From positions 159,488 to 223,487 of the forward strand of contig DAOMOX010000003.1 in NCBI GenBank assembly GCA_035444565.1: DNA of 64,000 nucleotides, read 5' to 3'. Each line of letters opens with the position of its first letter. Position 1 is the stretch's first letter. The notes under the pieces were generated by a model. The model saw only the letters and a program-made list of their open reading frames with translations, was not told the origin of the DNA and searched no databases. A program made the position numbers and the translations under genes. The stretch comes from Candidatus Dojkabacteria bacterium (GTDB lineage: Bacteria > Patescibacteriota > Dojkabacteria > B142 > OLB20). This document shows positions 20,784 to 63,451 of the stretch, in pieces.

Positions 20784-20790
20784 ATGTTTT

Positions 20791-22919: not shown

Positions 22920-22935
22920 GCTGTTTTATTTCAAT

Positions 22936-24943: not shown

Positions 24944-24958
24944 AGGTTTTATTTAAAA

Positions 24959-43316: not shown

Positions 43317-43754
43317 ATGAGAAAAGTTACAGATCTAAAAGGTTTTACATTAATTGAAATTTTGATTGTAATCGGTTTGATTGCAGTTCTTGCTGCAGTT
43401 ACGATTATTGCGTTGAATCCTACCGCTAGTTTTGAAAGACAAAGAAATTCTGAAAGACAAACAGAAATGGCTCAGATTCATACTGGTTATAACAGATGGG
43501 TCGCAGAAGGTAACAGTGCTACTCTTACTAGTGGTGGTAATCCATTACCAACATGTGCTGGTACTATTTTAACATCTCATGGAGTTGCATTCACATCAAT
43601 TAATATTTTCCCCACATTGACAGCAGGGGGTTATGTCCCAGCGGGTATTACAGATCCGGAAACTGGTGATTACAGAGTGTGTGCAGCAACAAATGCTCAA
43701 TTAACATTATTTGCTCCACAAACAGACGGTACAATTGTTACAATGACTAGATAG
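43317..43754 (+). CDS. pilA: Type IVa major pilin
   Basis: The class III signal is MRKVTDLKG|FTLIEILIVIGLIAVLAAV, with the cleavage-site Gly and Glu5. Two C-terminal Cys residues could form the disulfide that bounds the D-region. A strong terminator follows. Confidence 0.88.
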   Translation: MRKVTDLKGFTLIEILIVIGLIAVLAAVTIIALNPTASFERQRNSERQTEMAQIHTGYNRWVAEGNSATLTSGGNPLPTCAGTILTSHGVAFTSINIFPTLTAGGYVPAGITDPETGDYRVCAATNAQLTLFAPQTDGTIVTMTR

Positions 43755-43773
43755 AGATACGGTTGAATAATAG

Positions 43774-43801
43774 AAGAGGAGCTTCGGCTCCTCTTTTTTT
43801 G
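43774..43801 (+). terminator. Rho-independent terminator downstream of pilA
   Basis: A 9-bp GC-rich stem aagaggagc-ttcg-gctcctctt is followed by a T-tract of at least 6. Confidence 0.85.
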
Positions 43802-43853
43802 CTTTGTTTATTGATATCGTATAAATTTTGATATTAGTTATTATTAAACCGAT

Positions 43854-44264
43854 ATGTTCGGCCTACTAACAATCATTTTCTCTTTACTTGTTATAAGTCT
43901 AAATCCTGCTTCCAGCTTTCAGGATGCTAGGAATGCAGAAAGGGTCAGTGAAATGTCACAAATCATGACTTCTGTAAATTTATTTGAAATTGGTGAAGAT
44001 TCTCGTCTAAATTCACTTACCTATTCTGACGGGAAACCTCTTCCAGTTTGTGAAGAGGTTGATTCTAAATATACTAATGGAATTCCATTCCCATCTTTAG
44101 ACATTGCACCTACCATAATCTCTAGCGGATATATGTCGGAACATCCGACTGACCCTCAAGGTGGAGTAAATCCATATTACAACATTTGCTACAAATCAAG
44201 AGGTGGACAACTTACTATATATGCGCCGAATATTGAAGGGGAAATTACAACACTTACTAGATAA
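43854..44264 (+). CDS. Pilin paralog lacking the prepilin leader and cleavage motif
   Basis: The mature region parallels pilA (ISLNPASSFQDARNAERVSEMSQ against IALNPTASFERQRNSERQTEMAQ). The ORF starts directly in the hydrophobic helix MFGLLTIIFSLLV. An in-frame TAA lies 6 nt upstream of the ATG, so no N-terminal extension is possible. Confidence 0.6.
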   Translation: MFGLLTIIFSLLVISLNPASSFQDARNAERVSEMSQIMTSVNLFEIGEDSRLNSLTYSDGKPLPVCEEVDSKYTNGIPFPSLDIAPTIISSGYMSEHPTDPQGGVNPYYNICYKSRGGQLTIYAPNIEGEITTLTR

Positions 44265-44395
44265 AAAGAAACTGCAGTTTATTCTTCAAAAATTTAAGAG
44301 ATTTTAAATATTTTGAATTTTGGTCAAAGAATTAGGATTAACTTGATACCATCTCCAAACTTTGGTTTAATATTTGATAGTATTAGTTATTTTTA

Positions 44396-45904
44396 ATGTC
44401 CGGATCAACTGCCCAAAATTCTCAGACTGTAAACACGACTACAGGACAAGTGCCCACATCTATGGCACCTCCTACTCCGTCTCCTACATCTACAACACAA
44501 AATCAAAACAATACTGGAACTCCTGCACAAACCGCTAATACTGTTGCACAGAATTCTCAAAATCCTACAATGCATGCTACTGCTTCATCTCAAACACAAA
44601 TTGCACCAGCACAGGCGGAAAATACAATACCAGTTGAACAGAAGAAAGAAAATGAGCCTGGTGCTGAAAACCAACCGCCTACAAAAAAGATTCAGACAAT
44701 AGAGAAACCCAAAGATGGAAGCGAACTAAATATTGTTGAACTTATAAATTATATTGTTAAGCAAGCAATAAAAGCTAAAACTTCTGATATTCATATCGAA
44801 CCTCACGAAGAAGTTGTAGTGGTGAGATTCAGAATAGATGGAATATTAAAAGATGTTCTACAAGTAGGAAAGGATATTCAGGAGTCGTTGTTGTTCAGAA
44901 TCAAAGTCGCGGCGAAAATGCGTACTGATGAGCATTTTGCTCCTCAAGACGGTAGGATTAGGTTTATAATCGAAAACAAGAAAATTGACACACGTATTTC
45001 AATACTCCCAACAAGTTCAGGTGAGAAAGTTGTCATGAGATTGTTGATAAAAGAAGGAAAGTCATTCACTTTTAGTTCATTAGGTATGTCGGATCCTGAT
45101 CAATTGGTAGTTGAGAAAAGTTACAAGCGTCCCTACGGAATGATTTTAGCTGTTGGTCCAACTGGCTCAGGTAAAACCACTAGTCTATATGCCATCCTTC
45201 AGAAATTAAATTCGAGAGATGTAAATATCACCACCGTAGAAGATCCTGTAGAGTACAGTATTGATGGGGTAAACCATATCCAAGTCAACAATAAAGCAAA
45301 TTTAACATTTGCCTCTGGTCTTCGTTCAATTTTAAGACAGGATCCAGACATAATAATGATAGGAGAGATTCGTGATGCGGAAACTGCAAATATTGCTACA
45401 AATGCTGCTCTTACAGGTCATTTAGTATTATCTTCTCTGCACACCAACGATGCAATTTCCACCATACCGAGGTTGATAGATATGGACGTTGAGCCATTCC
45501 TTGTTGCCTCAACCTTAAACATTGTTATTGCTCAGAGGTTGGCGAGGAAATTGTGTGAAAAATGTAAAAAACAATACACCATCGATCAAGAAGAATTAAC
45601 AAGAATTAACAAAATTAGACAAGATATTGCTATGCATTTCAAAGTCGGAGATGTTGTTTACCAAGAGGCTGGTTGTGAAACTTGTGGAGATAGTGGATTC
45701 CAGGGAAGATTTGGTCTTTTTGAAATACTTGAGATAACTGAAAAAATTAGAAGAATGATTTCTGAAAGGGAAAATATTGATGACGTCTTCAAGATAGCAA
45801 GAGAAAATGGAATGAAACTGATAGTTGAAGATGGTGTGAATGCAGTTAAAACAGGAGTTACAAGTTTAGAAGAAATTATGAGGGTTACGGCTTTAAAACA
45901 ATAA
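44396..45904 (+). CDS. pilB: Type IV pilus assembly ATPase (PilB/GspE family). It carries a ~100-aa T/Q/P-rich disordered N-terminal extension.
   Basis: The Walker A is AVGPTGSGKTT. The tetracysteine motif CEKCKK...CETCGD is specific to GspE/PilB. Asp and His boxes are present. Confidence 0.88.
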   Translation: MSGSTAQNSQTVNTTTGQVPTSMAPPTPSPTSTTQNQNNTGTPAQTANTVAQNSQNPTMHATASSQTQIAPAQAENTIPVEQKKENEPGAENQPPTKKIQTIEKPKDGSELNIVELINYIVKQAIKAKTSDIHIEPHEEVVVVRFRIDGILKDVLQVGKDIQESLLFRIKVAAKMRTDEHFAPQDGRIRFIIENKKIDTRISILPTSSGEKVVMRLLIKEGKSFTFSSLGMSDPDQLVVEKSYKRPYGMILAVGPTGSGKTTSLYAILQKLNSRDVNITTVEDPVEYSIDGVNHIQVNNKANLTFASGLRSILRQDPDIIMIGEIRDAETANIATNAALTGHLVLSSLHTNDAISTIPRLIDMDVEPFLVASTLNIVIAQRLARKLCEKCKKQYTIDQEELTRINKIRQDIAMHFKVGDVVYQEAGCETCGDSGFQGRFGLFEILEITEKIRRMISERENIDDVFKIARENGMKLIVEDGVNAVKTGVTSLEEIMRVTALKQ

Positions 45905-45931
45905 ATTTGTAATTTAAATTATCAATTTTAA

Positions 45932-47017
45932 ATGGAAATAAAATTATCACAGGACAAGACTATATATTTATTCCATAAAGTTTCTCAGGTTGATTTGGCA
46001 TTATCCATTAGGCATCTAGCAGTTATGTTGGAATCTGGTCTCTCTCTTGAAGATACTCTTGAGGTAATCAGTCAGCAATCTCCAGATCCAAAACTTCGTG
46101 AAGCTTATAATGAAATCTTGAAAGATGTCCGCACTGGTAAGAATACATCTTCAGCTATGAGGAAATATCCAAATATATTTTCTGAGGTAATTATTTCAAT
46201 TATTGAAGTTGGGGAACAAGGAGGAACACTTGAGAAAAATCTAAACTTCCTAGCGGTTTTCTTAAAGAAAAATTATGAACTCTTGAGAAAAGTAAAAGGA
46301 GCCATGGTCTATCCATTAATCATCTTGCTCCTAACAACTTTTGAAATGCTAGGAGTGATTTATTTCATCTTACCTAAAATGGAGGGCTTGTTCAATGCGT
46401 TTGAAAACCCCCCAGCCCTTACTATGTTCGTTTTAAATGCCTCAAACTTTATTAGGACAAATATTTTATATCTCGCGATTGCATTAGTTGTAATTATTCT
46501 TGTATCAAGAAGATTCTTTAAAACCAAGACAGGGACAGACTTCAAGGATAAATTAATGTTAAAGATTCCGATAATTAAAGAATTAGTGATAAAAAATATA
46601 TTAGCTACATTCTCAAGAACATTGGGAATTTTGCTCGAGAGTGGAATTCCTTTGGCTGACGCCTTGAAGATTACAGCTACAACCACTAGTAATGTAGTAT
46701 ACGGTCAGATTTTTGAAACATTAAGGCAAGAGGTTCAGAGAGGAAAAAACGTTGCTGATGTATTAGGACGATATCCAAAACAGTTTCCTCCGCTCTATGT
46801 GAAAATGATTAGTGTCGGTGAAAAAACAGCTACTTTGGAAGACAACCTGTTATATTTATATGATTTCTATGCCGAAGAAGTCGAAGAAATGACAAATAAT
46901 ATGAGTACTATCATAGAGCCATTATTGTTGATTTTCATAGGTCTTATGGTGGCGGTATTAGCTATTGCCATTGTTGGTCCAATCTATCAATTAACAGGAA
47001 ATATTAACCAACTTTAA
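45932..47017 (+). CDS. pilC: Type IV pilus inner-membrane platform protein (PilC/GspF family)
   Basis: It has the duplicated T2SSF-domain architecture with three TM helices. The product is 361 aa and the gene follows pilB directly. Confidence 0.85.
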   Translation: MEIKLSQDKTIYLFHKVSQVDLALSIRHLAVMLESGLSLEDTLEVISQQSPDPKLREAYNEILKDVRTGKNTSSAMRKYPNIFSEVIISIIEVGEQGGTLEKNLNFLAVFLKKNYELLRKVKGAMVYPLIILLLTTFEMLGVIYFILPKMEGLFNAFENPPALTMFVLNASNFIRTNILYLAIALVVIILVSRRFFKTKTGTDFKDKLMLKIPIIKELVIKNILATFSRTLGILLESGIPLADALKITATTTSNVVYGQIFETLRQEVQRGKNVADVLGRYPKQFPPLYVKMISVGEKTATLEDNLLYLYDFYAEEVEEMTNNMSTIIEPLLLIFIGLMVAVLAIAIVGPIYQLTGNINQL

Positions 47018-48162
47018 TGCCATCAATGAAGGGTTTTACATTACTAGAGATGTTAATAGTTATAGCCATCACAGGCTTTATGTCGGTTTTAGCGGTCCCC
47101 TATAGCATCAAGCAAATTACTAATAATAGAGCTTATGATACTGCAGCAGAAGTTAGCAGTGCGATTTTCAATGCCCAACAGAACGCAAATTCGTTTAAGA
47201 ATGGGAAGGCTTATGGTGTAGAGGTGAGAGAAACAGGTTACTCCCTCATTACTTCGGTTGACGAAAATCTTGCTACAGATGGATTAGTAGGTTATTGGAA
47301 GTTTAACGAGAACATATGGAATGGAGTAAATGACGAAACATATGACTCTTCAGGAAATGGTAACCATGGTACTCCTAAATTAGACACCACACTTTCTAGT
47401 GAAGGATTCGGTAAAAGTGCAAAATTTGATGGAACAGGAGATTTTATAGCATTTCAAGATAACAATGGTGTTGAGGTTGATACTGTACCTCTAAGTAATT
47501 TAGATAATGAGAACAGTATGGCTGTATCTGTATGGTTTCGCACAAACACTCTTGTTGGTGGTGAGGACAGCTTAAGGTATATAGTGGCCAAAGAGTCCGC
47601 AAATTCCTCTGGGACAAGCTTCATCTTGAGATTTAACACTAGCACAGACCGTTTGGAATACTATTTAGGAGGAGCAAGTTATGTAGGTGTAACATCGGGG
47701 GTACTAGCCATTAATACATGGTACCATGCAGTTGCCACTTGGGATGGTTCGATGATGTATCTTTATTTAAATGGAGCCCAAGTAGGCTCAGCATCAAAAG
47801 GGGGTTTAACAGGCGACTCTTCCTTACCCGTTAGAATTGGGTCCTTGAATTTTGGTGGTGCACAAACTAATATCAGAAATTGGTCTGGTGAAATCGATGA
47901 GCTCAGAATCTATAACCTAAACTTATCATCAACTGATGTCACTAACTTATATAATTATAATCAACGTAAGTTTTCAAAGACGGATATACCTTTTTCAAAC
48001 GGTGTAAAATCAAATGTGATTTCGCCAGCAAAAAAAATTATTAATTTTGATGAAGGTAGTTTCAAACCAAATTCTACGACTTCTTTTAATATTGTTAATG
48101 GAAGTTCAGTAGTTTTTGTAGAAATAAACACAGAAGGCTTAATAAATTATTATATTAATTGA
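47017..48162 (+). CDS. Pilin-like protein with a prepilin N-terminus fused to a LamG (concanavalin-A-like lectin) domain
   Basis: The prepilin segment is MPSMKG|FTLLEMLIVIAITG. The LamG_3 hallmarks are LVGYWKFNEN...GNHGT...KFDGTGDFI and IDELRIYN. Confidence 0.75.
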   Translation: MPSMKGFTLLEMLIVIAITGFMSVLAVPYSIKQITNNRAYDTAAEVSSAIFNAQQNANSFKNGKAYGVEVRETGYSLITSVDENLATDGLVGYWKFNENIWNGVNDETYDSSGNGNHGTPKLDTTLSSEGFGKSAKFDGTGDFIAFQDNNGVEVDTVPLSNLDNENSMAVSVWFRTNTLVGGEDSLRYIVAKESANSSGTSFILRFNTSTDRLEYYLGGASYVGVTSGVLAINTWYHAVATWDGSMMYLYLNGAQVGSASKGGLTGDSSLPVRIGSLNFGGAQTNIRNWSGEIDELRIYNLNLSSTDVTNLYNYNQRKFSKTDIPFSNGVKSNVISPAKKIINFDEGSFKPNSTTSFNIVNGSSVVFVEINTEGLINYYIN

Positions 48163-48665
48163 TGATTTTCGACAAAAAGAAACTAAAAGGTATGACACTG
48201 ATTGAAGTTCTTTTGTATCTAGCCATTTTCGGAATGTTTTTTGTCGTTATTATTAATTACTTCTTTTTTGTTCAAGATAATAATCAACTTTCAGGAGAAG
48301 CGTTAAAAATTGATAGAGGAGTAATACTATTATCACAACATTTTGAAGATAGTTTTGAAAGAACAACGTCTATTGGGGGATCAACTATTTTTAATAATAA
48401 TAATGGAGCCTTATATTTAACAGGTCCTTCTAATATTAACTATACTGTATCTGATTTTGCCACAAGTGACGCAAGGCTACAGTTTTTCGATGGTGCTATA
48501 ACCAAACAAATCACAAGGAACGATGTTGAAGTTACCAAATTTTTACTTGAAGAAATTCTAGATAATAGCGATACTAATATAGGTGTGGAGATTACTGTGG
48601 GTATCAGATCTAAATCTGATACATCAATCAGTACTGAATTCACCAATTCATATATTTTTGATTGA
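48159..48665 (+). CDS. Minor pilin / pseudopilin
   Basis: The prepilin segment is KKLKG|MTLIEVLLYLAIFGMFFVV. The product is 168 aa and the gene overlaps its neighbours by 4 nt. Confidence 0.7.
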   Translation: MMIFDKKKLKGMTLIEVLLYLAIFGMFFVVIINYFFFVQDNNQLSGEALKIDRGVILLSQHFEDSFERTTSIGGSTIFNNNNGALYLTGPSNINYTVSDFATSDARLQFFDGAITKQITRNDVEVTKFLLEEILDNSDTNIGVEITVGIRSKSDTSISTEFTNSYIFD

Positions 48666-49054
48666 TGGAAAACCTTAGAGGGAACGTTGCATTAACCACT
48701 GTTTTGGTATTTTCGGCATTATTTGTCTTTACTGCAATTGTTTTAATTTTCCAGGCATTTGATTTCGCAAATTCTACCACAAGCTATACTAATCAAATTT
48801 ATGCTCAAAATACCGCATTTACATGTTTGGAAGAAGCATATTATAAAATTAGTAGAGATAATCCTGCCTATGCGAACACTGCTATGGAAAGTTTCTCCGT
48901 TGTGATAGACGCAGACAGAGAATGTTCTGCAACAGTCGTAAAAACAAGTGGCAACAATCGGGTTATTAATGTTGAAAGCCAATATCGTTCATCAAGTTAC
49001 AATACTCAAAAAATAATAGCAGATATAACAGCAACTGAATGGGTAATCAATTAA
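48662..49054 (+). CDS. PilX-N-like minor pilin
   Basis: The N-terminus MMENLRGNVALTTVLVFSALFVFTAIVLIF fits the PilX N-terminal pattern (RG-aLvtvL). The product is 130 aa. Confidence 0.55.
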   Translation: MMENLRGNVALTTVLVFSALFVFTAIVLIFQAFDFANSTTSYTNQIYAQNTAFTCLEEAYYKISRDNPAYANTAMESFSVVIDADRECSATVVKTSGNNRVINVESQYRSSSYNTQKIIADITATEWVIN

Positions 49055-51798
49055 AAATTAAAATAAACAAAAAAATATATAAAGGTTTCTCTTTAGTAGA
49101 ATTACTACTTGCTTTGGCTATTTTCGGTATTGTTGTTTCTGCAAATTTTGGCTTGGCTATAGATGCATATCGTTCTCGACAGAATGACAGAACTAGACTT
49201 GAAGCAGGCTTGGTAATCAAAGACACCATAAATAGCTTATATTCTATTAAAAGTTCCTCATGGTCAGAAATGATAAGATACTTCGATCAAGATCCTGATG
49301 GTTCAGATTCGAGAGTTGTTGATGTCATCAATAATAAAATTCAAATAAATTTTGGTACCAAGGTTCATAACGGTGTGACATATCAAGTTTATTTCAAAAA
49401 GGCAGATCGAAATTCAGGGGAGCTTGTTCCCGCAAGTGATGGAAACGACCCTGATACAATCAAAGTTATCGTTGTTGCATCTTGGACAGATATTTTCAAT
49501 AACAACCAACAACTCACAGAAAACTATTTTTTGACGAATTGGTCAAGTACCAGTTGGACAGAATATGATGATTACACTTTCTCTAATCCTCCTCCAGTAC
49601 TCACAAATACAAAGGTAGAAAATGATAGTGTACAGATTACTTCCTCCTCTAGTATGGCGAACGCAGATTGGTGTGTAATAACTGATAATATTACTACAAA
49701 ATCCTACGATTTATTTCCGGTAGGTTCCGGAAGCACACAAGCTATTGCAACAAATAGTGCTTCAAGTGGTGCAATTGATTATGAAATGTATGAACCATCG
49801 CTGACTGGTCCTATACCGACGAACGCTCCTGCACCTTTATCACCAGTGATGCCAGGAATAAACAACAGCAACCCTTCGATATGTACTGGTACAGGTACTA
49901 CTATTACACAATGTGAAAGTCTGTTAAGGCTCTTTGATAGTACAAACGGCACTTCTTGGACAACTAAGACAAATTGGAAAGTTACTTCTACTCCATGCAA
50001 CACTGTGCCAACTGGTGGATGGTCTGGAGTCACTTGTAGCGGCGGTAATGTAATTACAATTAGTCTACCCGGTAATAATCTCACAGGCACTTTACCTACG
50101 GAATTAGGTAACTTAACAAACCTAACAACACTAAATCTGTCTGGAAATTCCATATCAGGTCCAATCCCTCCACAAATTGGTCGATTAACTGGTCTAACAA
50201 CTTTGAACTTAAGTTCTAATCAGCTAGATGGGGTAATCCCAAAGACAATTGGGAACAATACAAATCTATCTGTTTTGAATCTGTCGGATAACCAACTAGA
50301 TGGACAGATTCCATCCTCAATAGGGAGACTTTCAACACTTGATCAGTTATACTTGAACGACAATACTCTTACGTGTCATGTTCCAACTACAATAGCTAAT
50401 CTTGCCGATATTGACTTAAATTATCTTAATATATCGGGAAATAATTTATTGTTGCCGACGAATATATCTCTTTTAAGTACATACTTTACTAATAAAGGAG
50501 TTACCGGAATCAGAATCGATGGTCAGGGAAGTGTTATTAACCATGAGGATTGTTTGTACCGACCTTCGTCAGACAATGTATATGTAGCGCAATACAACAC
50601 CACAGAAGGTGAACCTGCAACCTCTCTTTATCTAGAAAAATTTGCGAATGGTGCGTTTCCACCTTCTATGACAGAGTCGATAATTAACACAGTAGGCTGG
50701 GAAAACAATACATCTTCTGGTGGTCTTAGATTTGATGGTGGGGATGTCGTTGCGGTTGACTATAGTTCGAAATGGAATGTTCAGAATGATATGACTATAA
50801 TGACTTGGTTTAAGTCCAATGACACTTCTCAGGATTCATTTGATAGAATAGTTGAGTTTTCCAATGGAACTACAACGGGATGGTTTTTATCTTTCACTGT
50901 TCCAAATAAGCTAAGATTTACACATTTCGGTACCGAGAATTTGGTAATTGAGACTGGAACACCAGTGACAGACAATGTATGGACACATGCAGCAATAGTG
51001 ATTTCAGGAGGTACAGGAACCATGTATATTAATGGTGCCAACCCCTTAACAGATACTTATACTAGTCTCTCACCAGTAACGGGGACAACTCAGCAATTGC
51101 GGTTTGGAAATAACACAGCTTTAACTAATGGTTCGCAGATGGACATGGATGATGTTCGTATATACAACCGTGCATTATCTCAAAATGAGATAGTTAAATC
51201 ATATCAAACAGAAATAAATCGAAATGATGCTGGCTTGATTGGTTATTGGAGGATGAATGTTGTGAATTCTGTCGATCAAACAGTTTATGATTTGAGTTAT
51301 CAGGGGAAACACGGATGGAGAGGTAGCACATTAGCAGGTGGTGAAGCCTCTGATCCAGCTTTAATCGCGGGTAATGCAAAATACAGAGTGAACGATATAT
51401 ACAAATATAATAATCTATTATTTATGTCAACCTCTAATCCAACTAAAGATATAGTTGTTTTCAATCTGGATACAAATACACACAATATTATCAATTTCGG
51501 TTTGGCCTCAAATGATGATACTCAGGGGGTAGTCATTGCAAACGATACACGAGGTTTCGCTATTCAAGACAGTTATGTAATACAGTTCAATCCTGCAACC
51601 AATACATACGTTAGTGCTAAGAACCTATCAACAATCGGTGGACTAAAATTGAGAAATATTATTGATATGAAACTAAATTCAAATCAGCTTTATCTATTGG
51701 GACTAGGAGAAGATGGTAACTTCGGTGTGATGGATGTTACAAACGGTATAACCCCGACACCAAGGGTGAATAATTTACTATTAGAAGCATTCTTGTAA
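49039..51798 (+). CDS. Giant pilin-like adhesin of 919 aa. It has a prepilin N-terminus, plant-type LRR repeats with an LRRNT-like cap, and a C-terminal LamG domain.
   Basis: The prepilin segment is KIYKG|FSLVELLLALAIFG. The cap plus LRRs read CESLLRLFDSTNGTSWTTKTNW...CNTVPTGGWSGVTCSGGNVITISLPGNNLTGTLPTELGNLTNLTTLNLSGNSISGPIPPQIGRLTGLTTLNLSSNQLDGVIP. The LamG segment reads LRFDGGDVVAVDYS...MDDVRIYNRALSQNEI and LIGYWRMN. Confidence 0.8.
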   Translation: MGNQLKIKINKKIYKGFSLVELLLALAIFGIVVSANFGLAIDAYRSRQNDRTRLEAGLVIKDTINSLYSIKSSSWSEMIRYFDQDPDGSDSRVVDVINNKIQINFGTKVHNGVTYQVYFKKADRNSGELVPASDGNDPDTIKVIVVASWTDIFNNNQQLTENYFLTNWSSTSWTEYDDYTFSNPPPVLTNTKVENDSVQITSSSSMANADWCVITDNITTKSYDLFPVGSGSTQAIATNSASSGAIDYEMYEPSLTGPIPTNAPAPLSPVMPGINNSNPSICTGTGTTITQCESLLRLFDSTNGTSWTTKTNWKVTSTPCNTVPTGGWSGVTCSGGNVITISLPGNNLTGTLPTELGNLTNLTTLNLSGNSISGPIPPQIGRLTGLTTLNLSSNQLDGVIPKTIGNNTNLSVLNLSDNQLDGQIPSSIGRLSTLDQLYLNDNTLTCHVPTTIANLADIDLNYLNISGNNLLLPTNISLLSTYFTNKGVTGIRIDGQGSVINHEDCLYRPSSDNVYVAQYNTTEGEPATSLYLEKFANGAFPPSMTESIINTVGWENNTSSGGLRFDGGDVVAVDYSSKWNVQNDMTIMTWFKSNDTSQDSFDRIVEFSNGTTTGWFLSFTVPNKLRFTHFGTENLVIETGTPVTDNVWTHAAIVISGGTGTMYINGANPLTDTYTSLSPVTGTTQQLRFGNNTALTNGSQMDMDDVRIYNRALSQNEIVKSYQTEINRNDAGLIGYWRMNVVNSVDQTVYDLSYQGKHGWRGSTLAGGEASDPALIAGNAKYRVNDIYKYNNLLFMSTSNPTKDIVVFNLDTNTHNIINFGLASNDDTQGVVIANDTRGFAIQDSYVIQFNPATNTYVSAKNLSTIGGLKLRNIIDMKLNSNQLYLLGLGEDGNFGVMDVTNGITPTPRVNNLLLEAFL

Positions 51799-54700
51799 AT
51801 GGAAAAGAACATAGTATTAATAGACAATAATTTTGCAATTCGAGAAACACTAAAAATAGTTTTAGACAATCTTGCAAAGAATAACGACTTAAAATTCAAT
51901 TTATACACTTCACAGAATGGTATTGAAGGATTAGGTTTTGTTTATGTAACACATCCAGAAATAATTATAGTAGATACTACCCTTCCCAAATATAGCGGAA
52001 ATGAACTACTTTACTTCCTTTTGACTAATAAAAAATTTCATACAAGTAAGGTTAAAGTTTTTGTACTAGTTGAAAAATCGCAAAAAATTAGGGTACCCGA
52101 TAATTTTTCAGTATTAAATAAGTCCTCCAAGAATTTTGTTAAGAGCTTAGTCAAAGAATTATCAGATGTTTTGAAAATTGATAATAAGGTTAATTATAAA
52201 TACCCAAAACTAACAACTTGGATAATTAAAACAGCAAATGATCTTGATGTCGTAAAACAAAGATTTGAGAAGAATGACCTCCTCTCGAAACTGATAAATT
52301 TGTTTGTTATTGGATTTAAAGAACTATTACTCTCTTTTTTACTATTAATAAACTATGTTTTTAATAAACGTGTTGTAGATTCAAATGTAAAACAGGAAAG
52401 GAGAAATCTATCTTTACTTAGGAGAAAACACTATCCTACTGCTATCGCAGGCTCTATAGGTATAGTTATGACAACTATACTTACTTTAAGTGTTCTCTTT
52501 AGTCAGAACATCTTCTTCAATCAAGTAAATGAAGAAACTGAAGCATTCGGTTTTGGAGCAGTCGGTTGGTATTCGACTATGGACAATGCTTCTGATATCA
52601 GTAATCCTGTAGTAGGTTCGGCTGGTGAGGCATTGAATGGAGTTGATTATGTTACACAAAACATAGTAGTAGATGAAGATTATTCTTACGATATAATTTC
52701 CGCTCGCTTTAATGCTGATAATGAAGTGGTTAGGATTGCTAATCCCGTTGTGGGGGAAGACGTTAAATTAGATAAAGGTACTATAGAATTTATGTATTCA
52801 CCACTGGAGGCGCATACGACAAATAAGGAAATGACTTTTTTTAGTATATTTGGTGATGCAAACAACAAAATTGAATTCAAAAAGCTCAATGATGCCAATG
52901 ATAGTTTATCTTTACTATATAAATGTGCATATTGTGGTGATGCAGAGGTTTTAATTTCAGGAGCTAATTACGCATTTGCGGCTGATGACTGGGTCTATTT
53001 TACTGTCCATTGGAATGCTTATGCTCCTATAAATGAGCAGTTATTAATTTATGTTAACGAGGAAGAATTACCTATGACGCGAAATTCTTCATCGATTAAT
53101 CCTGCATCAATCACAGATCCAGCATATATTTATATTGGTAATTCATCTCCTACAGGAACAAATGAGGCGAACGGAAGAATTGACGATTTTACAATCTACC
53201 ATGATGTGGCACAACCTGAAGCGACACCTGTGGGCACACCCGCTCCTACACCAGTTTTTTGGCAGAATTCAGGACAAGCTAGTTGGTATTCAACTTTTGA
53301 TAGCATGGAAGCAGTTACTACCCCTGCTATTGGGGATGTTCCTGGGGTATTCTCGGGAGCTTCATTTATAGATGGTCCTGCAGAATATGAAAGTGCTCTC
53401 TATTTTGATGGGGCAGGTAAAAGTCTTTACATCGAAGGAACGCAAGGTATTCACTATTCATTAAATGAAGGTGCGGTTGAATTCTATTATAGACCGATAT
53501 ATGAGGCAAACCATAATGCAGAAATAAATCTATTCAGCATTAGACAAAACGATAATGAAGAAATTCGTCTATATAAACGAGATAATGCCAATGGCAATGC
53601 TCTAGCTTTTTCTTACCACTGTCAAACATCCTGCGGTGGAGAAGAAACGATAGCACTTGCTAATTATGATTCTTATTGGAATGATGGTGAGTGGATGTTT
53701 TTCCGAATAACTTGGAATGACAACCCTACTCTTAGTCTTTCAGAGCAATTGAAAATATTTATAGATGGTGACCAGCCAACCCATACAGACCAGGAATTTA
53801 AAATCCTGGGTGATAATATAACTTCAGAACCGAATCCACTTAGGGTATATGTGGGGAATAGAACTGAAAATGGTGATTACAGTGCGCTGGGAAGTATTGA
53901 TGAATATCGAATGTTCACGACAACAGTGATACCTACTCCTACAATTACCCCAACACCCTCTCTAACTTTGACACCAACAATAACGCCATCTCCGAGTGTG
54001 GCTCCTACAGCAACTCCTACACCACTATGGTATTCTACTATAGACAGTGTTTCTGCAATACAAACACCGGTTAGAGGTTCTTCAGCAACAATATCAGGGA
54101 ACTATGTATTTCTATCTGGTTCTCCATATTCACCAGGTGGCGCTAGCAATAAAGCAGTAAAATTCGGCTGGAAAAGTACAGGAAGTCGAATTATTTCAAA
54201 TGTTCCCGATGCAGAAGTAAATGAAACTAGTGGAAGAATTAGCTTCCACTTCAGCCCTGAGTTTGCATCAACTGATGCAGATAATGGAAATTATTTCCAA
54301 TTATATTCGAACTCAACAAATAGAATTACATTCAAAAAGAAAGGCCTAAATCTGGAATTGCATTATTATGCCACAGCACATGGTGCCACTAATTATAATT
54401 TAATGACAATTCCTAATTCATCGTTCTCCTGGAATGGAGGAGAATGGATATTCTTCGATATTTATTATAATACCGCACTAGATCAGAACAATGAGTTGAG
54501 GTTGTTTATGAGTACAAACGGAGGACCACTAATAGAACCTGAACACACACATTTAAATACAGTAACTACTCCTATCACAGATGTGTCAACCTTATACATA
54601 GCTGGAGACCCCACATATATTAATTCATATCCAAGAGGTCGTATTGATGATTTTAGAGTTTATGGATACACAGTAAATATGCCAACCCCAACAGTGCCTG

Positions 54701-57700
54701 CAGTTAGCCCTACCCCATCTCCAGTACCCGCGATGAGTATACTTTGGTATTCCACGATGGCAAACCCAACAGCTATCTGGCAACCTATTATTGGTACTAC
54801 TCCAACTGCGGTTAATAATCTTAGTTATGCAACAGATGGTCTGCCCGAAGCCAGATCGGGTGCAGTATTTAACAGCAATGGGTCATCTGTAACAATTGAT
54901 ATTCAAGGACAAGATTATGATAAATTCCAAGGTAAAGTTGAATTTTGGTACAAACCAAATGTCGCATACACACAACCAAATGACCTGACGTTCTTTTATT
55001 TGAGAACAAGGGCAACAGATACGATTACTTTGGTAAAAGATGCTAGTGCAGATTATCTGGAATTCCAATATGATTCAAGCTGCGTAGGTACAGGAGGTAC
55101 TTGTAATAATGCAGGAACTGGACTAATTGACAACCGAAGAACTAGGTATGATGATACTGGTACCGGAAATTATACAAATTACTGGGTAATAGGTAAATGG
55201 ATGAAGTTCTCGGCTCAGTGGGATTACTACGCACCTACAGAAGAAGAAAAACTAAAACTATTAATAACATACCATAATGGTACGGCATGGGAGACGGTTG
55301 AGCCTGGTAGTAAATCTGTCTTACAGGTTATGAATCCATACAATTTTGAAAATGCAGTAGGTTTTTCCTTTGGTAGCAACTATCAATTCGGAGCTACTTA
55401 TATTCGTGGAAATTTAAGTGACTTCCAGATTTGGGGAATAGGTGCAGGGTTAACTCCTACTCCATCTCCTACACCTGTATCTCTAACCTCAGCCGATCCA
55501 ATTTGGTATTCAACTATGAATGATGTGGCGGCATTGACAACACCTGTTATTGGTAAAGGTGCTACGGCACAAAATTTAACTTTTGTATCAGGGGTTACGT
55601 CTAATAGCGCAAAGATTGATGCTAATTCAGAGTATGCTGCGGTTGGAGCTATTCCGTATTCGACGCCTCCCGTTAGTTTCAAGAAAAACATGGGAGCTAT
55701 AGAATTCTATTACAAACCCGATTTGTCAGCATCTGCTGCCCAAAATATTACACTTTTTAATGTAAGAGTAGATGCCTCTAATCAATTAAGGTTATATAAG
55801 CAATCAGGATCAAGTCCATTGTGGCTCCAATACACACATGGAGGCTCAACAAAGAGTATACAGGTGCCTTATGCTAGTTTTTCTCCTTATTGGAACATAG
55901 GTAATTGGACAAAGATTAGAGCTGAATGGGATAGAACAAAAAGTACTCCTGATGACTTGAAATTATTTTTGGACAACGAAAGACCCACACCAACAAAAAC
56001 AGGAGCAGTATTTAGTGATATGGTTGGCAACCCTACTCTTTATATTGGAAATCTACATAATACTGGTACGGAGCCTGCGATGGGTGCGATTGATGATTTT
56101 ACAATTTTTGGGGACCCTGACGCAAGAAGATATGTAGTAAATTCAACACTAGATGAAAGTGATGCTGATATCGGAGATTTAGATTGTTATACGGCTTCAG
56201 GTAAATGTACTTTGAGGGCAGCGATACAAGAAGCAAATTCTACTACCAATGCTGACAAGATTATCTTTAATATTCCTGGGACCGGACCACATACCATAAG
56301 TCTATCGAGTGCACTTCCTACGATAACAAACTCACTCCAGATTGATGGAACAACTCAAACTGGTTCAGACTGTACAACAAAAGATCTTAGAATTGTTTTG
56401 TCAGGTAATAATCTAAGTAGTCCAGGACTAGCTTTCTCCAGTACTACAGGAGGCATCGTAAAAGGTCTAGTGATTCATGGATTCTCTAGGGGGATTAACT
56501 ACACTTCAAGTACAGGAGGAACTGTTCAATGTAATATAATCGGACTTGCTCAAGATGGTGTTACCATCGTGGGGAATAGTGAAAGCGGTATTACTTTAGA
56601 ATCAAATTCGACGGGAAATACTATCGGAGGTTCTGTCGCAGGTCAAGGGAATATCTTAAGTGGAAATTATATTGGACTAGATATCAATTCTTCAAACACC
56701 AACGTCGTCCAAGGAAACTACATCGGTACAAACAAAGGAGGAGAGTACTCACGAGGAAACACAACAGCAGGGATTGAAATTGATAATTCGTCGAGCATAG
56801 AAATTGGAGATGCAGATTTAAATAGTCTGCCTGCTAGTTGTACAGGTGTATGTAATGTAATATCAGGTAATGGTGCAAGTGGAATAAACTACATCGCAGG
56901 TACATCTGGAAGTAATGACAATGTTATAGAAGGTAATTATATAGGAGCTGATAAAACTGGCGCAAATCAAGTTACTAATTACGATGGAATTAAGGTTACT
57001 AAGGTTTCCAATCTCAACATATCTTATAATCAGATTGTTGCTGTGAATTCTGGAATTTATGCGTTAAGTACTACGACGGGTGCAATTTCAGGAATTACAG
57101 TCGATAATAACTACATCGGTATCAACAGAGCTGGAAATGCAAAGTTAATGGATTCTACGTATGGAGTAGTATTATTCTCAAGTAATGGGTCCACCTTCTC
57201 AACTGCAACTGTAACGAACAACATAATCATAGGAGCAGTTAGAGGTGCTGGAATTTATGGATATGGTTCACCAATCTCTGGAATCTCTATAAAATCTAAC
57301 TACATCGGTACGACTTCAACTGATGCCAATTTAGGTAATAAATATGGTATACAATTTATCTCCCCAGTTGCTACGAACAATGTTATAGGTGGAACAAACC
57401 CTGCAGACGGTAACACAATAGCCAGGAATTCCAGCTATGGAATTTATCTTTCTGGAACTAAAAATTCACTTATTCGTGAAAATACTATTAGGAATAATGC
57501 TAGTGATGGAATTTCGATTGTCGGTAATAGTAGTTCGGAAAATAATACGATTATAGAGAACAGTATTTATGATAATACAGGTATGGGAATTAACCTCAGA
57601 ACATCAACAGTAGACAAAGTAAGCTTCAATGATAAAGGTGATACTGATTCGACATTAGCAGGAGACGGTCCAAATAATTTACAGAATTTCCCTGTATTGA

Positions 57701-58758
57701 CGAAAGCGTCTTATGTTGGGACAACATTGTCAGTTTATGGAGGTTTCCAGAGTGAAAGCGGGAAATATTATCGCTTAGATTTCTACTCGAGCGCCTCTAG
57801 TGATGATACTGGTTTTGGAGAAGGTGCAAATCATATCCATACAGAAATTAGTAGAGCGGGAAGTCCAACATACGATTTCAGTATCACACCTAAAGTAATT
57901 ACTAGTTTAACGCTTCCACCCGGGCATAAATATATTAGTGCAACGGCAACTGAATGTGGTCAACTTGCATGTACTACTCTTCTTAGTACTTCAGAATTCG
58001 GATTAACTGGATTTGATGGAGTAGTAAGTGGAAAAGGATTAGATTTAGATACAACAACTAGTATACTTCCAAAGTTTTATGTCGCAGCTGATGGAACAGA
58101 ATATATCCCAGACATCTATTCATTTGATATTTTAATAGATAATTCACTTGATCTCGTTACAGGTCTTAATTCTGTGAATATGTCACCATTAGGAATAGTC
58201 GGATTAGATAATAATAACTTCGCTACTGCCGGATATTCTGCGACTAATCAATATCACGTGTACAATAATATCGAGGGACTTCAGTGCTCATACAGTATTG
58301 GATCTAATATTAAGGCAACGGATATTAAGATTGCTAAGAACGGTGTAGGTTCTGAGTATGTCTACATCACTTCCGATTCCACAAATGAAGAACTTACCTT
58401 GATGCAAGGGGAAGCATTACCTAGTGGTTATGCTAAATATGGAGAATATTTATCAGAAGTAAAAGATATGGGAACTCCTATAAAATATTATCATTCAATT
58501 GTATGGGATGAAGCTAAAAATGGTGGTGAAATAAAGATTCAGATTAGATCGGGTAGTTCTAGTAACCTCTCAAACGAAGAATGGTATGGTCCAGATGGCA
58601 CCAGAGGAACATTCTTTACTCTTAGCGGTACAAACGAAGGTTACGTTTTACCTAAAGTAATTCAAGGGAAACAATTTATCCAATACAGGTTGTTGATAGA
58701 ATCAGATCAATTACAATCGCCTGCGCTCAATTCTATTACTATCAGATATGGTACATGA
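51799..58758 (+). CDS. Giant 2319-aa surface protein. It has an N-terminal receiver-like (pseudo-REC) cytoplasmic domain, a TM region, five LamG repeats separated by Pro/Thr linkers, and a parallel beta-helix (PbH1/CASH) region with a C-terminal domain.
   Basis: The REC-like segment is IVLIDNNFAIRETL...PEIIIVDTTLPKYSGNELLYFL...KVFVLVEK, with the acidic pair replaced by NN. The TM segment is YPTAIAGSIGIVMTTILTLSVLF. There are five WYSTxD...G(R/S/A)IDDF(T/R)(I/V)(Y/F) LamG units with TPTP linkers. The beta-helix repeats read NNTIIENSIYDNTGMGINL and NLQNFPVLT. The start codon abuts the stop of the preceding gene. Confidence 0.8.
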   Translation: MEKNIVLIDNNFAIRETLKIVLDNLAKNNDLKFNLYTSQNGIEGLGFVYVTHPEIIIVDTTLPKYSGNELLYFLLTNKKFHTSKVKVFVLVEKSQKIRVPDNFSVLNKSSKNFVKSLVKELSDVLKIDNKVNYKYPKLTTWIIKTANDLDVVKQRFEKNDLLSKLINLFVIGFKELLLSFLLLINYVFNKRVVDSNVKQERRNLSLLRRKHYPTAIAGSIGIVMTTILTLSVLFSQNIFFNQVNEETEAFGFGAVGWYSTMDNASDISNPVVGSAGEALNGVDYVTQNIVVDEDYSYDIISARFNADNEVVRIANPVVGEDVKLDKGTIEFMYSPLEAHTTNKEMTFFSIFGDANNKIEFKKLNDANDSLSLLYKCAYCGDAEVLISGANYAFAADDWVYFTVHWNAYAPINEQLLIYVNEEELPMTRNSSSINPASITDPAYIYIGNSSPTGTNEANGRIDDFTIYHDVAQPEATPVGTPAPTPVFWQNSGQASWYSTFDSMEAVTTPAIGDVPGVFSGASFIDGPAEYESALYFDGAGKSLYIEGTQGIHYSLNEGAVEFYYRPIYEANHNAEINLFSIRQNDNEEIRLYKRDNANGNALAFSYHCQTSCGGEETIALANYDSYWNDGEWMFFRITWNDNPTLSLSEQLKIFIDGDQPTHTDQEFKILGDNITSEPNPLRVYVGNRTENGDYSALGSIDEYRMFTTTVIPTPTITPTPSLTLTPTITPSPSVAPTATPTPLWYSTIDSVSAIQTPVRGSSATISGNYVFLSGSPYSPGGASNKAVKFGWKSTGSRIISNVPDAEVNETSGRISFHFSPEFASTDADNGNYFQLYSNSTNRITFKKKGLNLELHYYATAHGATNYNLMTIPNSSFSWNGGEWIFFDIYYNTALDQNNELRLFMSTNGGPLIEPEHTHLNTVTTPITDVSTLYIAGDPTYINSYPRGRIDDFRVYGYTVNMPTPTVPAVSPTPSPVPAMSILWYSTMANPTAIWQPIIGTTPTAVNNLSYATDGLPEARSGAVFNSNGSSVTIDIQGQDYDKFQGKVEFWYKPNVAYTQPNDLTFFYLRTRATDTITLVKDASADYLEFQYDSSCVGTGGTCNNAGTGLIDNRRTRYDDTGTGNYTNYWVIGKWMKFSAQWDYYAPTEEEKLKLLITYHNGTAWETVEPGSKSVLQVMNPYNFENAVGFSFGSNYQFGATYIRGNLSDFQIWGIGAGLTPTPSPTPVSLTSADPIWYSTMNDVAALTTPVIGKGATAQNLTFVSGVTSNSAKIDANSEYAAVGAIPYSTPPVSFKKNMGAIEFYYKPDLSASAAQNITLFNVRVDASNQLRLYKQSGSSPLWLQYTHGGSTKSIQVPYASFSPYWNIGNWTKIRAEWDRTKSTPDDLKLFLDNERPTPTKTGAVFSDMVGNPTLYIGNLHNTGTEPAMGAIDDFTIFGDPDARRYVVNSTLDESDADIGDLDCYTASGKCTLRAAIQEANSTTNADKIIFNIPGTGPHTISLSSALPTITNSLQIDGTTQTGSDCTTKDLRIVLSGNNLSSPGLAFSSTTGGIVKGLVIHGFSRGINYTSSTGGTVQCNIIGLAQDGVTIVGNSESGITLESNSTGNTIGGSVAGQGNILSGNYIGLDINSSNTNVVQGNYIGTNKGGEYSRGNTTAGIEIDNSSSIEIGDADLNSLPASCTGVCNVISGNGASGINYIAGTSGSNDNVIEGNYIGADKTGANQVTNYDGIKVTKVSNLNISYNQIVAVNSGIYALSTTTGAISGITVDNNYIGINRAGNAKLMDSTYGVVLFSSNGSTFSTATVTNNIIIGAVRGAGIYGYGSPISGISIKSNYIGTTSTDANLGNKYGIQFISPVATNNVIGGTNPADGNTIARNSSYGIYLSGTKNSLIRENTIRNNASDGISIVGNSSSENNTIIENSIYDNTGMGINLRTSTVDKVSFNDKGDTDSTLAGDGPNNLQNFPVLTKASYVGTTLSVYGGFQSESGKYYRLDFYSSASSDDTGFGEGANHIHTEISRAGSPTYDFSITPKVITSLTLPPGHKYISATATECGQLACTTLLSTSEFGLTGFDGVVSGKGLDLDTTTSILPKFYVAADGTEYIPDIYSFDILIDNSLDLVTGLNSVNMSPLGIVGLDNNNFATAGYSATNQYHVYNNIEGLQCSYSIGSNIKATDIKIAKNGVGSEYVYITSDSTNEELTLMQGEALPSGYAKYGEYLSEVKDMGTPIKYYHSIVWDEAKNGGEIKIQIRSGSSSNLSNEEWYGPDGTRGTFFTLSGTNEGYVLPKVIQGKQFIQYRLLIESDQLQSPALNSITIRYGT

Positions 58759-59356
58759 CATAGAATCAATTCTAACTAAGTTGGAGTCAAACTTTCCAGA
58801 TGCTAGGTCGGAACTGGATTTTAAAAATCCATTTGAGCTTTTAATTGCTACTATTCTATCAGCACAATGTACGGATGCTCGGGTAAATAAAGTCACTCCA
58901 ATATTATTTAACCAATACCCTACTCCACAAAAAATGAGTGTGGCAAGTCAGGATCAAGTTGCAAAAATTATTTTCTCAACTGGTTTCTTTAATCAGAAAT
59001 CGAAAAAAATTATAGCTACTTCAAAGAAAATTGTTGATGAATTTGATGGAAGAGTACCAGATGAAATGAAAGAGTTAATAAAACTTCCAGGAGTAGCAAG
59101 GAAAACTGCAAATGTAGTCCTATATAATGCTTTTGGTAAAAACGAAGGGATTGCAGTTGATACACATGTGATTAGGATATCCAAATTGTTGGGATTAACT
59201 AATAATTTTAACCCTGACAAAATCGAAAAAGACTTAATGGAATTATTCCCTAGAGATAAGTGGGGATTTCTAAGTCAAAGTCTAGTTCTTTATGGGAGAT
59301 ATTATTGCACGGCAAAGCGACATGATACATCAAAGTGCTTTCTAGGCGGCCACTAA
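58748..59356 (+). CDS. nth: Endonuclease III-family HhH-GPD DNA glycosylase. It lacks the C-terminal 4-Cys Fe-S cluster loop.
   Basis: The HhH-GPD motif is LIKLPGVARKTANVVL with catalytic Asp in VDTHVIRI. The C-terminus has only two Cys (CTAKRHDTSKC), not the Cx6Cx2Cx5C pattern. Confidence 0.8.
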   Translation: MVHDIESILTKLESNFPDARSELDFKNPFELLIATILSAQCTDARVNKVTPILFNQYPTPQKMSVASQDQVAKIIFSTGFFNQKSKKIIATSKKIVDEFDGRVPDEMKELIKLPGVARKTANVVLYNAFGKNEGIAVDTHVIRISKLLGLTNNFNPDKIEKDLMELFPRDKWGFLSQSLVLYGRYYCTAKRHDTSKCFLGGH

Positions 59357-62607: not shown

Positions 62608-63451
62608 TTTAATACGCTTTTTTTATAAAACATCTAGACCGAAATTTTGGTCGTACTTATTTGGGACATATTTATTCGGATTCTTTGCAGGACTTCAAGA
62701 ACCTGATCCAACAGCGCTCCTTGACTGGAGATTTATTGTTCTATTATTGTTCTTCATTTTTCCTGCCAACCTTTTCGTATATGGAGTAAATGACTTAGCT
62801 GATGAAGATACTGATAAATTTAATCCCAAAAAAGGCAAACAAGAGAATTTATTAGAAGTATCACATAAGAACTATCTCTTATACGGAGTAGTTGTAGTTG
62901 TCATTCTTTCCATAATTATCTCTTATCTTATTCCACAAATCGCTCTATGGTTAATTCTATTTATAATATTGGGTGGCTCATATAGTTTACCACCTGCAAG
63001 ATTCAAGAAAAGGCCATTTATTGATTCGCTGAGTAATATTTTCTATGCATTCCCAGGAATTATTGGATTTTTGATTAATACCCCTACCCTTCCTAATTTA
63101 CAAATTTTACCAGTATTGTTTATCTTTCCAGTCGCAATGCACTTATATTCTGCGATTCCAGATATAGAAGCAGACAAAAAAGCAGGACTTAAAACGACTG
63201 CGGTACTTCTAGGTCAAAACACTTCACTCGTAATATGTAATATTCTATGGTTAGTCGCATTTCTATGGATTTTAAATACTGGGTATTTATTTCCTTTCAC
63301 ACTGATTTTGCTTGTTTATCCTGCACTCCCCTTGTTAAATTTGAATCTTAAGAAATTTGACATTAACAAAACATATTGGTTTTTTCCTTACATTAATTTT
63401 ATTGTAGGCTTCATTTTCTCGATTATATTTATAATCAACCTTTATCAATGA
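62516..63451 (+). CDS. UbiA-family prenyltransferase (lycopene elongase LyeJ/CrtEb-like). The start is probably the internal MKKNNLIRFF, near 62597.
   Basis: The product is polytopic. The UbiA Asp-rich motif is YGVNDLADEDTDKFNPKK. A second motif region lies near DIEADKKAGLKT. Confidence 0.75.
   Translation: MFIQALVYPLVLLQRELYPIKFPTISMKKNNLIRFFYKTSRPKFWSYLFGTYLFGFFAGLQEPDPTALLDWRFIVLLLFFIFPANLFVYGVNDLADEDTDKFNPKKGKQENLLEVSHKNYLLYGVVVVVILSIIISYLIPQIALWLILFIILGGSYSLPPARFKKRPFIDSLSNIFYAFPGIIGFLINTPTLPNLQILPVLFIFPVAMHLYSAIPDIEADKKAGLKTTAVLLGQNTSLVICNILWLVAFLWILNTGYLFPFTLILLVYPALPLLNLNLKKFDINKTYWFFPYINFIVGFIFSIIFIINLYQ

Follow-up and report, generated by a model that had tools for sequence, protein, structure and literature searches.

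A giant surface-protein gene closes a type IV pilus array

The window analysed here, a 64,000-nucleotide (nt) stretch of contig DAOMOX010000003.1 from a Candidatus Dojkabacteria bacterium, contains one unbroken frame of 2,319 codons on its forward strand (open-reading frame (ORF) analysis; Table 1), in which a CheY-like receiver domain, two hydrophobic helices and a giant putative adhesin are encoded as a single polypeptide. The identical 2,319-amino-acid (aa) protein was found by sequence search on three contigs, and its public record (Ca. Dojkabacteria) is labelled ‘right-handed parallel beta-helix repeat-containing protein’ without mention of the receiver. Among the type IV pilus genes arrayed on this strand the giant gene is the last large one; the array runs from a pilin and what looks like a truncated pilin, through PilB (T2SSE) and PilC (T2SSF), to four pilin-like proteins and finally the giant gene. 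The four pilin-like proteins have lengths of 381 aa (N_methyl and Laminin_G_3 domains), 168 aa (N_methyl), 130 aa and 919 aa (N_methyl, LRR and Laminin_G_3). From PilB onward the genes are tightly packed or overlapping, with spacings of −16 to +27 nt, and the ATG of the giant gene abuts the stop codon of the 919-aa pilin-like gene, leaving an intergenic distance of zero. Both the pilus gene order and the position of the giant gene are kept at the orthologous loci of five species in GTDB. The joining of a receiver to a surface protein of five LamG repeats and a beta-helix in one polypeptide is as the preliminary description of this DNA had it. The giant gene belongs to a type IV pilus operon and occupies the position of a PilY1-type tip adhesin, directly after the minor pilins. 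A search with the family profile described below found no second copy of the receiver module in the window.

Table 1 Features of the giant gene and of the pilus array upstream, in window positions
Feature	Residues	Position	Strand	Basis and remarks
Type IV pilus genes upstream of the giant gene		43317..51798	+	Pfam T2SSE, T2SSF, N_methyl, Laminin_G_3, LRR
Whole gene, pre-protein of receiver module and giant surface passenger	1-2319	51799..58758	+	Single ORF, stop codon included
CheY-like receiver	1-125	51799..52173	+	beta1-alpha1-beta2-alpha2-beta3-alpha3-beta4-loop-beta5-alpha5, no alpha4; key residues D9, N10, D59, V91, K108
Juxtamembrane helix, conserved AN..D motif	136-158	52204..52272	+	Predicted helix, high pLDDT; N147 and D150 invariant in one alignment
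Hydrophobic helix 1	161-188	52279..52362	+	Kyte-Doolittle 2.1; moderately hydrophobic, often charged
Conserved basic loop, D.N..Q...(D/N)...R..(Y/H)YPT	189-213	52363..52437	+	8 K/R vs 2 D/E
Transmembrane helix 2, predicted signal-anchor or h-region, N-in/C-out	214-241	52438..52521	+	Kyte-Doolittle 2.1
Candidate signal-peptidase-I-like site T247-E248-A249/F250, module/passenger boundary	247-249	52537..52545	+	Family conservation; cleavage putative
Five LamG/concanavalin-like repeats	250-487, 488-735, 736-975, 976-1228, 1229-1440	52546..56118	+	WYS/IDDF motifs, Thr/Pro-rich linkers
CSLREA N-terminal domain (CTLRAAIQEAN)	1445-1480	56131..56238	+	TIGR04214, E 3.9e-7, 29.8 bits vs cut-off 25
Right-handed parallel beta-helix	~1481-1960	56239..57678	+	PF13229 48.4 bits vs 25.9; NosD 41.7 bits; TIGR03804 repeats; outer limits set by eye from the repeat pattern
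C-terminal region	1961-2319	57679..58755	+	No family match, no membrane anchor

The N-terminus is a CheY-like receiver

The N-terminus has a CheY-like receiver fold, as had been proposed for its first ~120 aa. The Pfam Response_reg model (PF00072) alone matched this protein with an E-value of 8e-4 and 20.0 bits, below its gathering cut-off of 30.2. A profile built from four relatives hit receiver domains in 47 of 49 matches to the PDB, and with a 29-member profile all 33 matches at E ≤ 1e-3 were receivers, led by Spo0F (5.6e-7); the best receiver matches are of the single-domain type, DivK and Spo0F. An AlphaFold model computed from the 29-sequence alignment (predicted local distance difference test (pLDDT) 88, predicted template modelling score (pTM) 0.83) has the (beta/alpha)5 flavodoxin-like fold expected of PF00072. 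The window protein itself scores 296 bits against the family profile, and two paralogues, P0013 and P0020, exceed the Pfam Response_reg cut-off with 37.1 and 39.4 bits. The domain starts with beta1 at residue 2, and no N-terminal signal sequence is present.

Two of the residues on which receiver chemistry depends are intact: D59 aligns with D54 of Spo0F, the phospho-acceptor at the end of beta3, and the beta5 lysine is kept as K108. The acidic pair, which had previously been read as NN, is D9-N10 in the alignment register, both in this protein and in its orthologues, instead of the usual D-D or E-D; the earlier reading was a one-residue register error and the second Asp alone is lost. Similarly, of the strand correspondences that had been drawn, the beta3 Asp stands (D59), whilst the beta4 Thr does not, as V91 takes the Thr/Ser position. 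With the acceptor Asp59 and Lys108 in place, the name ‘pseudo-receiver’ is not established. The connection between beta4 and beta5 is short, with no alpha4 helix predicted, and the usual alpha4-beta5-alpha5 output face is remodelled in the family.

A two-helix membrane module with a predicted internal export signal

Alignments of first 29 and then 153 members show that the receiver is one part of a module of ~250 aa, consisting of the receiver, a variable linker, the AN..D helix, helix 1, and the basic loop with helix 2. The single transmembrane (TM) region of the preliminary description is therefore replaced by two hydrophobic helices (161-188 and 214-241) with a basic loop between them. The loop takes the form D.N(I/V).Q...D...(F/Y)R.(R/K)YYPT family-wide, and its residues N196, R208 and P213 are near-invariant. 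The two helices differ in character across the family: helix 1 has a median Kyte-Doolittle value of 1.80, carries at least one charged residue in 113 of 153 members and is flanked on both sides by net positive charge, whereas helix 2 has a median best 19-residue value of 2.51 and is uncharged in 144 of 153. In the window protein the 30 residues after helix 2 contain no K/R and five D/E, and the linker at residues 245-262 is disordered in the AlphaFold model (pLDDT <50).

On hydropathy and charge, helix 2 is the canonical membrane span across the family and helix 1 is not; helix 1 is probably embedded in the membrane or peripheral to it, without spanning it. The positive-inside rule and the lack of an N-terminal signal place the receiver in the cytoplasm, in keeping with the N-in orientation suggested earlier. 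A moderately strong case can therefore be made for a predicted topology in which the receiver is cytoplasmic, helix 1 lies on or in the inner leaflet, the loop is cytoplasmic, helix 2 runs outward and the passenger is outside the cell.

The passenger

The 2,070 residues downstream of the module are of extracellular-type composition (38% S/T/N/G and 5.7% K+R) and form a putative adhesin. Five LamG repeats begin with WYS at residues 257, 496, 744, 983 and 1236, a period of ~240 aa, end with (I/L)(D/S)(D/E)(F/Y), and are pairwise 28–35% identical over ~200–220 aa. Laminin_G_3 (PF13385) matched repeat 1 with 30.8 bits (cut-off 27.6) and repeats 5, 2 and 3 with 26.7, 23.0 and 16.2 bits; only repeat 1 is above the cut-off, and repeat 4 gave no Laminin_G_3 match. 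Thr-Pro linkers are present at aa 729-743 and 962-978. The five WYS...IDDF repeats with such linkers and the beta-helix block described previously are thus borne out by the motifs, by Laminin_G_3 in four of five repeats and by PF13229. Beyond the beta-helix, aa 1968-2319 gave no Pfam match at E ≤ 0.1 and aa 1990-2319 no sequence match in the PDB. After residue 240 no hydrophobic segment exceeds a Kyte-Doolittle value of 1.1, a point in which the protein differs from many paralogues, which have C-terminal TM segments.

Receiver and adhesin form one gene

The 90% cluster of the window protein contains at least six full-length 2,319-aa variants, which come from independent assemblies (NCBI, JGI, ENA and Logan). 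Orthologues from five GTDB species (44–96% identity) are each encoded by a single unbroken ORF or reach the end of their contig; all five follow pilus genes and, on the three of five contigs that are long enough, precede endonuclease III and RNase J. The same fusion thus recurs in related genomes, in these five species and, as an N-terminal module, elsewhere in the family. We also looked for an internal true start after the TM segment and found no in-frame start between the hydrophobic helices, with no ATG, GTG or TTG between residues 169 and 223.

An accidental or artefactual fusion, in which an assembly error or a lost stop codon had joined a receiver-membrane gene to a separately started adhesin, would account for the result of the initial homology search, which returned only three relatives, two of them (L001 and L005) with receiver and adhesin in different frames. 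Intact versions of both lineages exist, however, as P0004 (2,270 aa) and P0005 (2,288 aa), so these frameshifts are probably errors or strain-level pseudogenes, and L001 has further fragmented genes. The protein is also conserved across the junction, with synonymous changes, and these points, with the six full-length variants, the single ORF in five species and the absence of a start codon between residues 169 and 223, make an artefact very improbable. A single inserted nucleotide at the end of helix 1 breaks the frame in L001, whilst L005 is shifted at the start of that helix, and the two frameshifts (L001 6248-6800 and L005 980-1340) fall within ~100 nt of each other. Programmed frameshifting was rejected as an explanation: the shift positions differ, L001 has other broken genes, and P0004 and P0005 are intact.

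The module heads a large family of surface proteins

An exhaustive profile search, with clustering at 50% identity, detected the module in 142 clusters at E ≤ 1e-30 and in 199 at E ≤ 1e-10. Its profile (receiver, helix, loop and helix) matches the N-termini of proteins of 143 to 4,258 aa, and of the 153 family sequences that were analysed, 75 exceed 1,000 aa and 36 exceed 2,000 aa. The fusion of receiver and adhesin, first thought unusual, is therefore no peculiarity of this gene or of pili, as the same 250-aa module heads ~140–200 clusters with unrelated passengers and also occurs in stand-alone forms.

Across 153 members less than 50% identical to each other (denominators vary by aligned position), the acceptor Asp is kept in 148 of 151, the Lys in 145 of 151 and a first acidic residue, D or E, in 146 of 153. 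The second acidic residue is Asp in 122 of 153 and Asn in 17, including this clade, and the beta4 Thr/Ser is found in 40 of 147. The near-invariance of the acceptor Asp, the Lys and the first acidic residue, together with the several paralogues that pass the Pfam cut-off, suggests that selection acts on the chemistry of the receiver pocket in this family.

The family occurs mainly in Dojkabacteria, with one Doudnabacteria locus and several generically labelled bins. There are several module paralogues per genome, some in tandem (for example the pairs of family genes at L015 9947-20242 and L011 5425-12259), and adjacency to PilB/PilC is limited to the orthologous group of the giant gene, the other paralogues lying elsewhere. 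Many paralogues (P0008, P0013, P0020 and similar) have at their C-termini several TM segments that alternate with CarboxypepD_reg domains, and their passengers may be anchored at this far end. A stand-alone module is present on a complete 1.14-Mb chromosome (L027). In L029 (6360-8490) a natural split is seen, in which a 254-aa receiver/two-helix module stops just after helix 2 and the next gene, overlapping it by 4 nt, encodes a protein of 437 aa that has a classical signal peptide of its own and, at the C-terminus, a TM segment. At a further locus, L030 (2-3228), the region upstream of a 2,452-aa family member contains a DUF4118-PAS-HisKA-HATPase_c histidine kinase, at a distance of 4.3 kb, and, at 3–4 kb, a weak S26/S24-like peptidase; kinases of the PAS-HisKA-HATPase type therefore exist in the Dojkabacteria lineage.

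A candidate cleavage site between module and passenger

A conserved alanine (A249 in the window protein) lies 9–15 residues past helix 2 and is near-invariant, being Ala in 105 of 112 family members at the −1 position of a candidate signal peptidase I site. The −3 position is V/I/A/T/S/L in 112 of the 118 members that have a residue there (~95%), and Pro is never found at +1 (0 of 104). Unrelated passenger domains start 1–6 aa beyond this Ala, including CSLREA/beta-helix, the xYxWxGGG beta-strand-repeat type and DUF2341 with LamG, and the Ala therefore marks the boundary between module and passenger. The region has the n/h/c pattern of a signal peptide, with a positive n-region, a hydrophobic h-region, small residues at −3 and −1 and no Pro at +1. 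It departs from a classical one in its position, as the export signal is preceded by ~190 residues including a folded domain, and in an h-region beyond the usual ~7–20 residues. In the L030 paralogue the h-region has only 17 residues and is followed by KPVSA/T, a textbook signal peptide. Taken together, this pattern suggests that receiver and adhesin may be separated after export at the site following helix 2, which would argue against a permanent transmembrane relay; that signal peptidase I cuts after Ala249 in particular is, in our judgement, about an even chance.

A proposed receiver-bearing export signal

On the explanation that we favour, with evenly balanced confidence, a cytoplasmic receiver is coupled to an internal export signal that is probably cut, so that the receiver would stay bound to the membrane and a LamG/beta-helix adhesin would be set free. 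The first part of the protein (aa 1-249) would comprise the receiver, the juxtamembrane helix, helix 1 at the inner leaflet, the basic cytoplasmic loop and one true TM helix; the basic loop as n-region and helix 2 as h-region would together make up an internal Sec-type export signal, placing everything downstream outside the cell. The second part (aa 250-2319) would be the exported passenger, with its five LamG repeats, CSLREA/parallel beta-helix and C-terminal region. A cut by signal peptidase I after Ala249 would leave a membrane-tethered single-domain response regulator, much like the stand-alone paralogues, whilst the freed adhesin would associate with the pilus or the cell surface. The receiver would in this way tie a cytoplasmic signal to how giant surface proteins are exported, placed or released. 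What it controls is speculative: gating, localising or counting export would each fit a module shared by many passengers. In most family members the signal could be phosphorylation, since the D-D pair, Asp and Lys are conserved, whereas in this clade a phosphorylation-independent docking or regulatory role is more likely, given the D-N pair, the change of Thr to Val and the missing alpha4. A more specific version of the proposal, that a phosphorylatable receiver is built into a signal sequence to give a two-product ‘polyprotein’ of tethered response regulator and secreted or pilus-borne adhesin, we regard as tentative and rather doubtful.

Several observations weigh against this explanation. 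Two of the five canonical receiver residues are altered in this clade, and the 64-kb window contains no kinase or signal peptidase gene; among 33 loci (32 and the window) L030 alone has such neighbours, so that they are not recurrent. The h-region is long (~23–28 hydrophobic residues), the c-region of 9–15 residues lies at the far end of the usual range of signal peptidase I, and the sequence leading up to the Ala, R.ES.FA in most members, shows more conservation than a peptidase would require. The window protein, if cut, has no other anchor. Finally, the Kyte-Doolittle value of helix 1 in this protein (2.1) is high enough for helices 1 and 2 to form a two-span hairpin. Such a hairpin, or a receiver outside the cell, is nevertheless unlikely, given the lack of a signal at the N-terminus, the positive charge on either side of helix 1 and the only moderate hydrophobicity of that helix.

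Some of these observations would follow if the protein were left uncut, with helix 2 as a permanent tether of the adhesin and the receiver either relaying binding or tension inward (e.g. to PilB/PilC) or altering presentation of the adhesin, in the manner of integrins or LapD. The inward relay is the idea of the preliminary description, which also suggested that the domain could recruit the protein to the pilus machinery; we consider the uncut protein possible if somewhat doubtful. The length and hydrophobicity of helix 2 suit a stable anchor, no other anchor is available in the window protein, the module is modelled as one confident unit (by the pTM given above), the giant gene is translationally coupled to the pilus genes, and the conserved R.ES.FA stretch could be structural, with no role as a cleavage site. 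However, a single TM helix followed by a disordered linker (245-262) is a poor conduit from a 2,070-aa passenger, and the same module precedes unrelated passengers and occurs without any. The −3/−1/+1 pattern fits signal peptidase I in ~95% of members, many paralogues have C-terminal TM segments of their own, and the natural split in L029 also speaks against a permanent connection.

Two other readings we consider improbable. In one, binding or force would trigger a site-1 cut, and intramembrane cleavage would then free a soluble CheY-like receiver, in the manner of RsgI or RseA. The combination of a cytoplasmic regulatory domain, one TM helix and extracellular modules of carbohydrate-binding type does parallel RsgI, by analogy, the conserved extracytoplasmic site adjoins the membrane, and the receiver is of the single-domain type, with DivK and Spo0F its best matches; but the window yielded no site-2 protease, sigma factor or partner, helix 1 would hold the released fragment at the membrane, and nothing sets such a cut apart from constitutive cleavage by signal peptidase. 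In the other, whose probability we put a shade lower, the receiver would be a vestigial or structural head, serving in the cytoplasm as a folded plug or as a targeting handle to force very long pre-proteins to insert N-in, and taking no part in signalling. The losses in this clade (D10 to Asn, the beta4 Thr to Val, and alpha4, part of the output face), the retention of the beta4 Thr/Ser in 40 of 147 members only and the lack of a kinase nearby in the 64-kb window would all be expected of such a head, yet acceptor Asp in 148 of 151 members, Lys in 145 of 151 and a near-invariant first acid, at less than 50% identity, are hard to explain without selection on the pocket.

Other genes of the window

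Within the pilus array, the only strong terminator-like hairpin lies after the first pilin gene, where a hairpin with a T-run (43772-43797) separates it from the second pilin gene. The latter (43854-44264, forward strand) is without the prepilin leader and the G/FTLIE motif, begins MFGLLTIIF with stop codons just upstream, and looks like a truncated pilin paralogue. At the other end, an endonuclease III (HhH-GPD) gene (58748-59356, forward strand) shares 11 nt with the 3′ end of the giant gene, and is kept as neighbour in those orthologous loci whose contigs reach that far (L006, L008 and L009). Because this overlapping neighbour is conserved, the pilus/adhesin array appears to include a DNA-repair gene in its transcript. 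Directly downstream lies a carotenoid-type set (61108-63451, forward strand, continued in L004 19310-24733) with two amine-oxidase/phytoene-desaturase-like genes, a UbiA prenyltransferase, Caroten_synth and a squalene/phytoene synthase, which is unexpected in a reduced genome of the candidate phyla radiation (CPR). On the reverse strand, six successive genes (17340-30427) encode proteins of 1,822, 137, 534, 387, 321 and 1,147 aa; five of the six have no Pfam match at E ≤ 0.001 and the 137-aa gene has a sub-threshold match to Uso1_p115_C only, whilst the two largest proteins have charged, coiled-coil-like N-termini.

Relation to known systems and meaning

Receiver domains are universal input modules of bacterial two-component signalling, and to our knowledge their known outputs are all cytoplasmic: DNA binding, enzymes and protein partners. 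Judged from sequence, the receiver described here stands in an unprecedented context, at the head of exported giant surface proteins and in front of an internal export signal. Compared with the single-domain response regulators of PF00072 (CheY, DivK, Spo0F), it is predicted to be a membrane-tethered domain at the front of a giant exported protein; it has no alpha4, most members have another residue in place of the beta4 Thr/Ser and, in this protein, the second acid is Asn. Receivers are known from pilus systems in the atypical N-terminal domain of TadZ/CpaE and the degenerate receiver of FimX, which are cytoplasmic and joined to ATPase or cyclic di-GMP domains. The likeness is that a receiver-like domain is tied to type IV filament genes, possibly serving localisation or docking over phosphotransfer; the present family differs in its membrane module and secreted passenger, and most of its members keep the phosphorylation residues.

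As a large non-pilin gene directly after minor pilins, with Sec-type export predicted, the giant gene resembles the PilY1/PilC-type adhesins and is a candidate tip adhesin, but the C-terminal beta-propeller of PilY1/PilC gave no Pfam match on the whole protein or on segments, the passenger consists of five LamG repeats and a beta-helix, and a 249-aa receiver-bearing leader stands in place of a signal peptide of ~25 aa. LapA, with LapD and LapG, offers another parallel, a giant repeat adhesin whose retention could hinge on an N-terminal module and a proteolytic cut with a link to cytoplasmic signalling. LapA, however, is type 1 secreted, held in an outer-membrane pore and controlled by cyclic di-GMP in trans, whereas here the domain is in cis and export is presumably by Sec, and the organism of the window appears to be without an outer membrane. 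The anti-sigma factor RsgI and the ToxR/CadC regulators share the arrangement of cytoplasmic regulatory domain, one span and extracellular binding domain, but theirs are anti-sigma or DNA-binding domains with small sensor ectodomains, in place of a receiver with a 2,000-aa passenger. Extended signal peptides, such as the extended signal peptide region of autotransporters and the leaders of accessory-Sec serine-rich adhesins, likewise put a long leader before a normal n-h-c signal and influence export; these are 25–90 aa and unstructured, whilst the leader here has ~190 aa, with a folded signalling domain and an extra hydrophobic helix.

The helix-loop-helix part matches no Pfam or NCBIfam model, and full-text literature searching that covered Patescibacteria and Dojkabacteria, receiver domains, membrane-bound response regulators and pili turned up no account of such an architecture; CPR pili were treated by Méheust et al. 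(2019; PMC6744442), and receivers were not. Even read with the greatest caution, these results define a domain family that has no annotation so far, a receiver with a two-helix membrane region, which is found in at least about 140 clusters and, with several copies to a genome, in a single lineage of ultra-small bacteria that probably depend on hosts. Control by the receiver of export, placement or release would represent a previously unrecognised link between signalling and secretion, in which the export of host-contact proteins could be gated, placed or counted by two-component-type chemistry. This would amount to a lineage-wide means of regulating surface display in episymbiotic Dojkabacteria, with several paralogues in each genome, and would provide a concrete handle on the control of host attachment in CPR cells, which is poorly understood.

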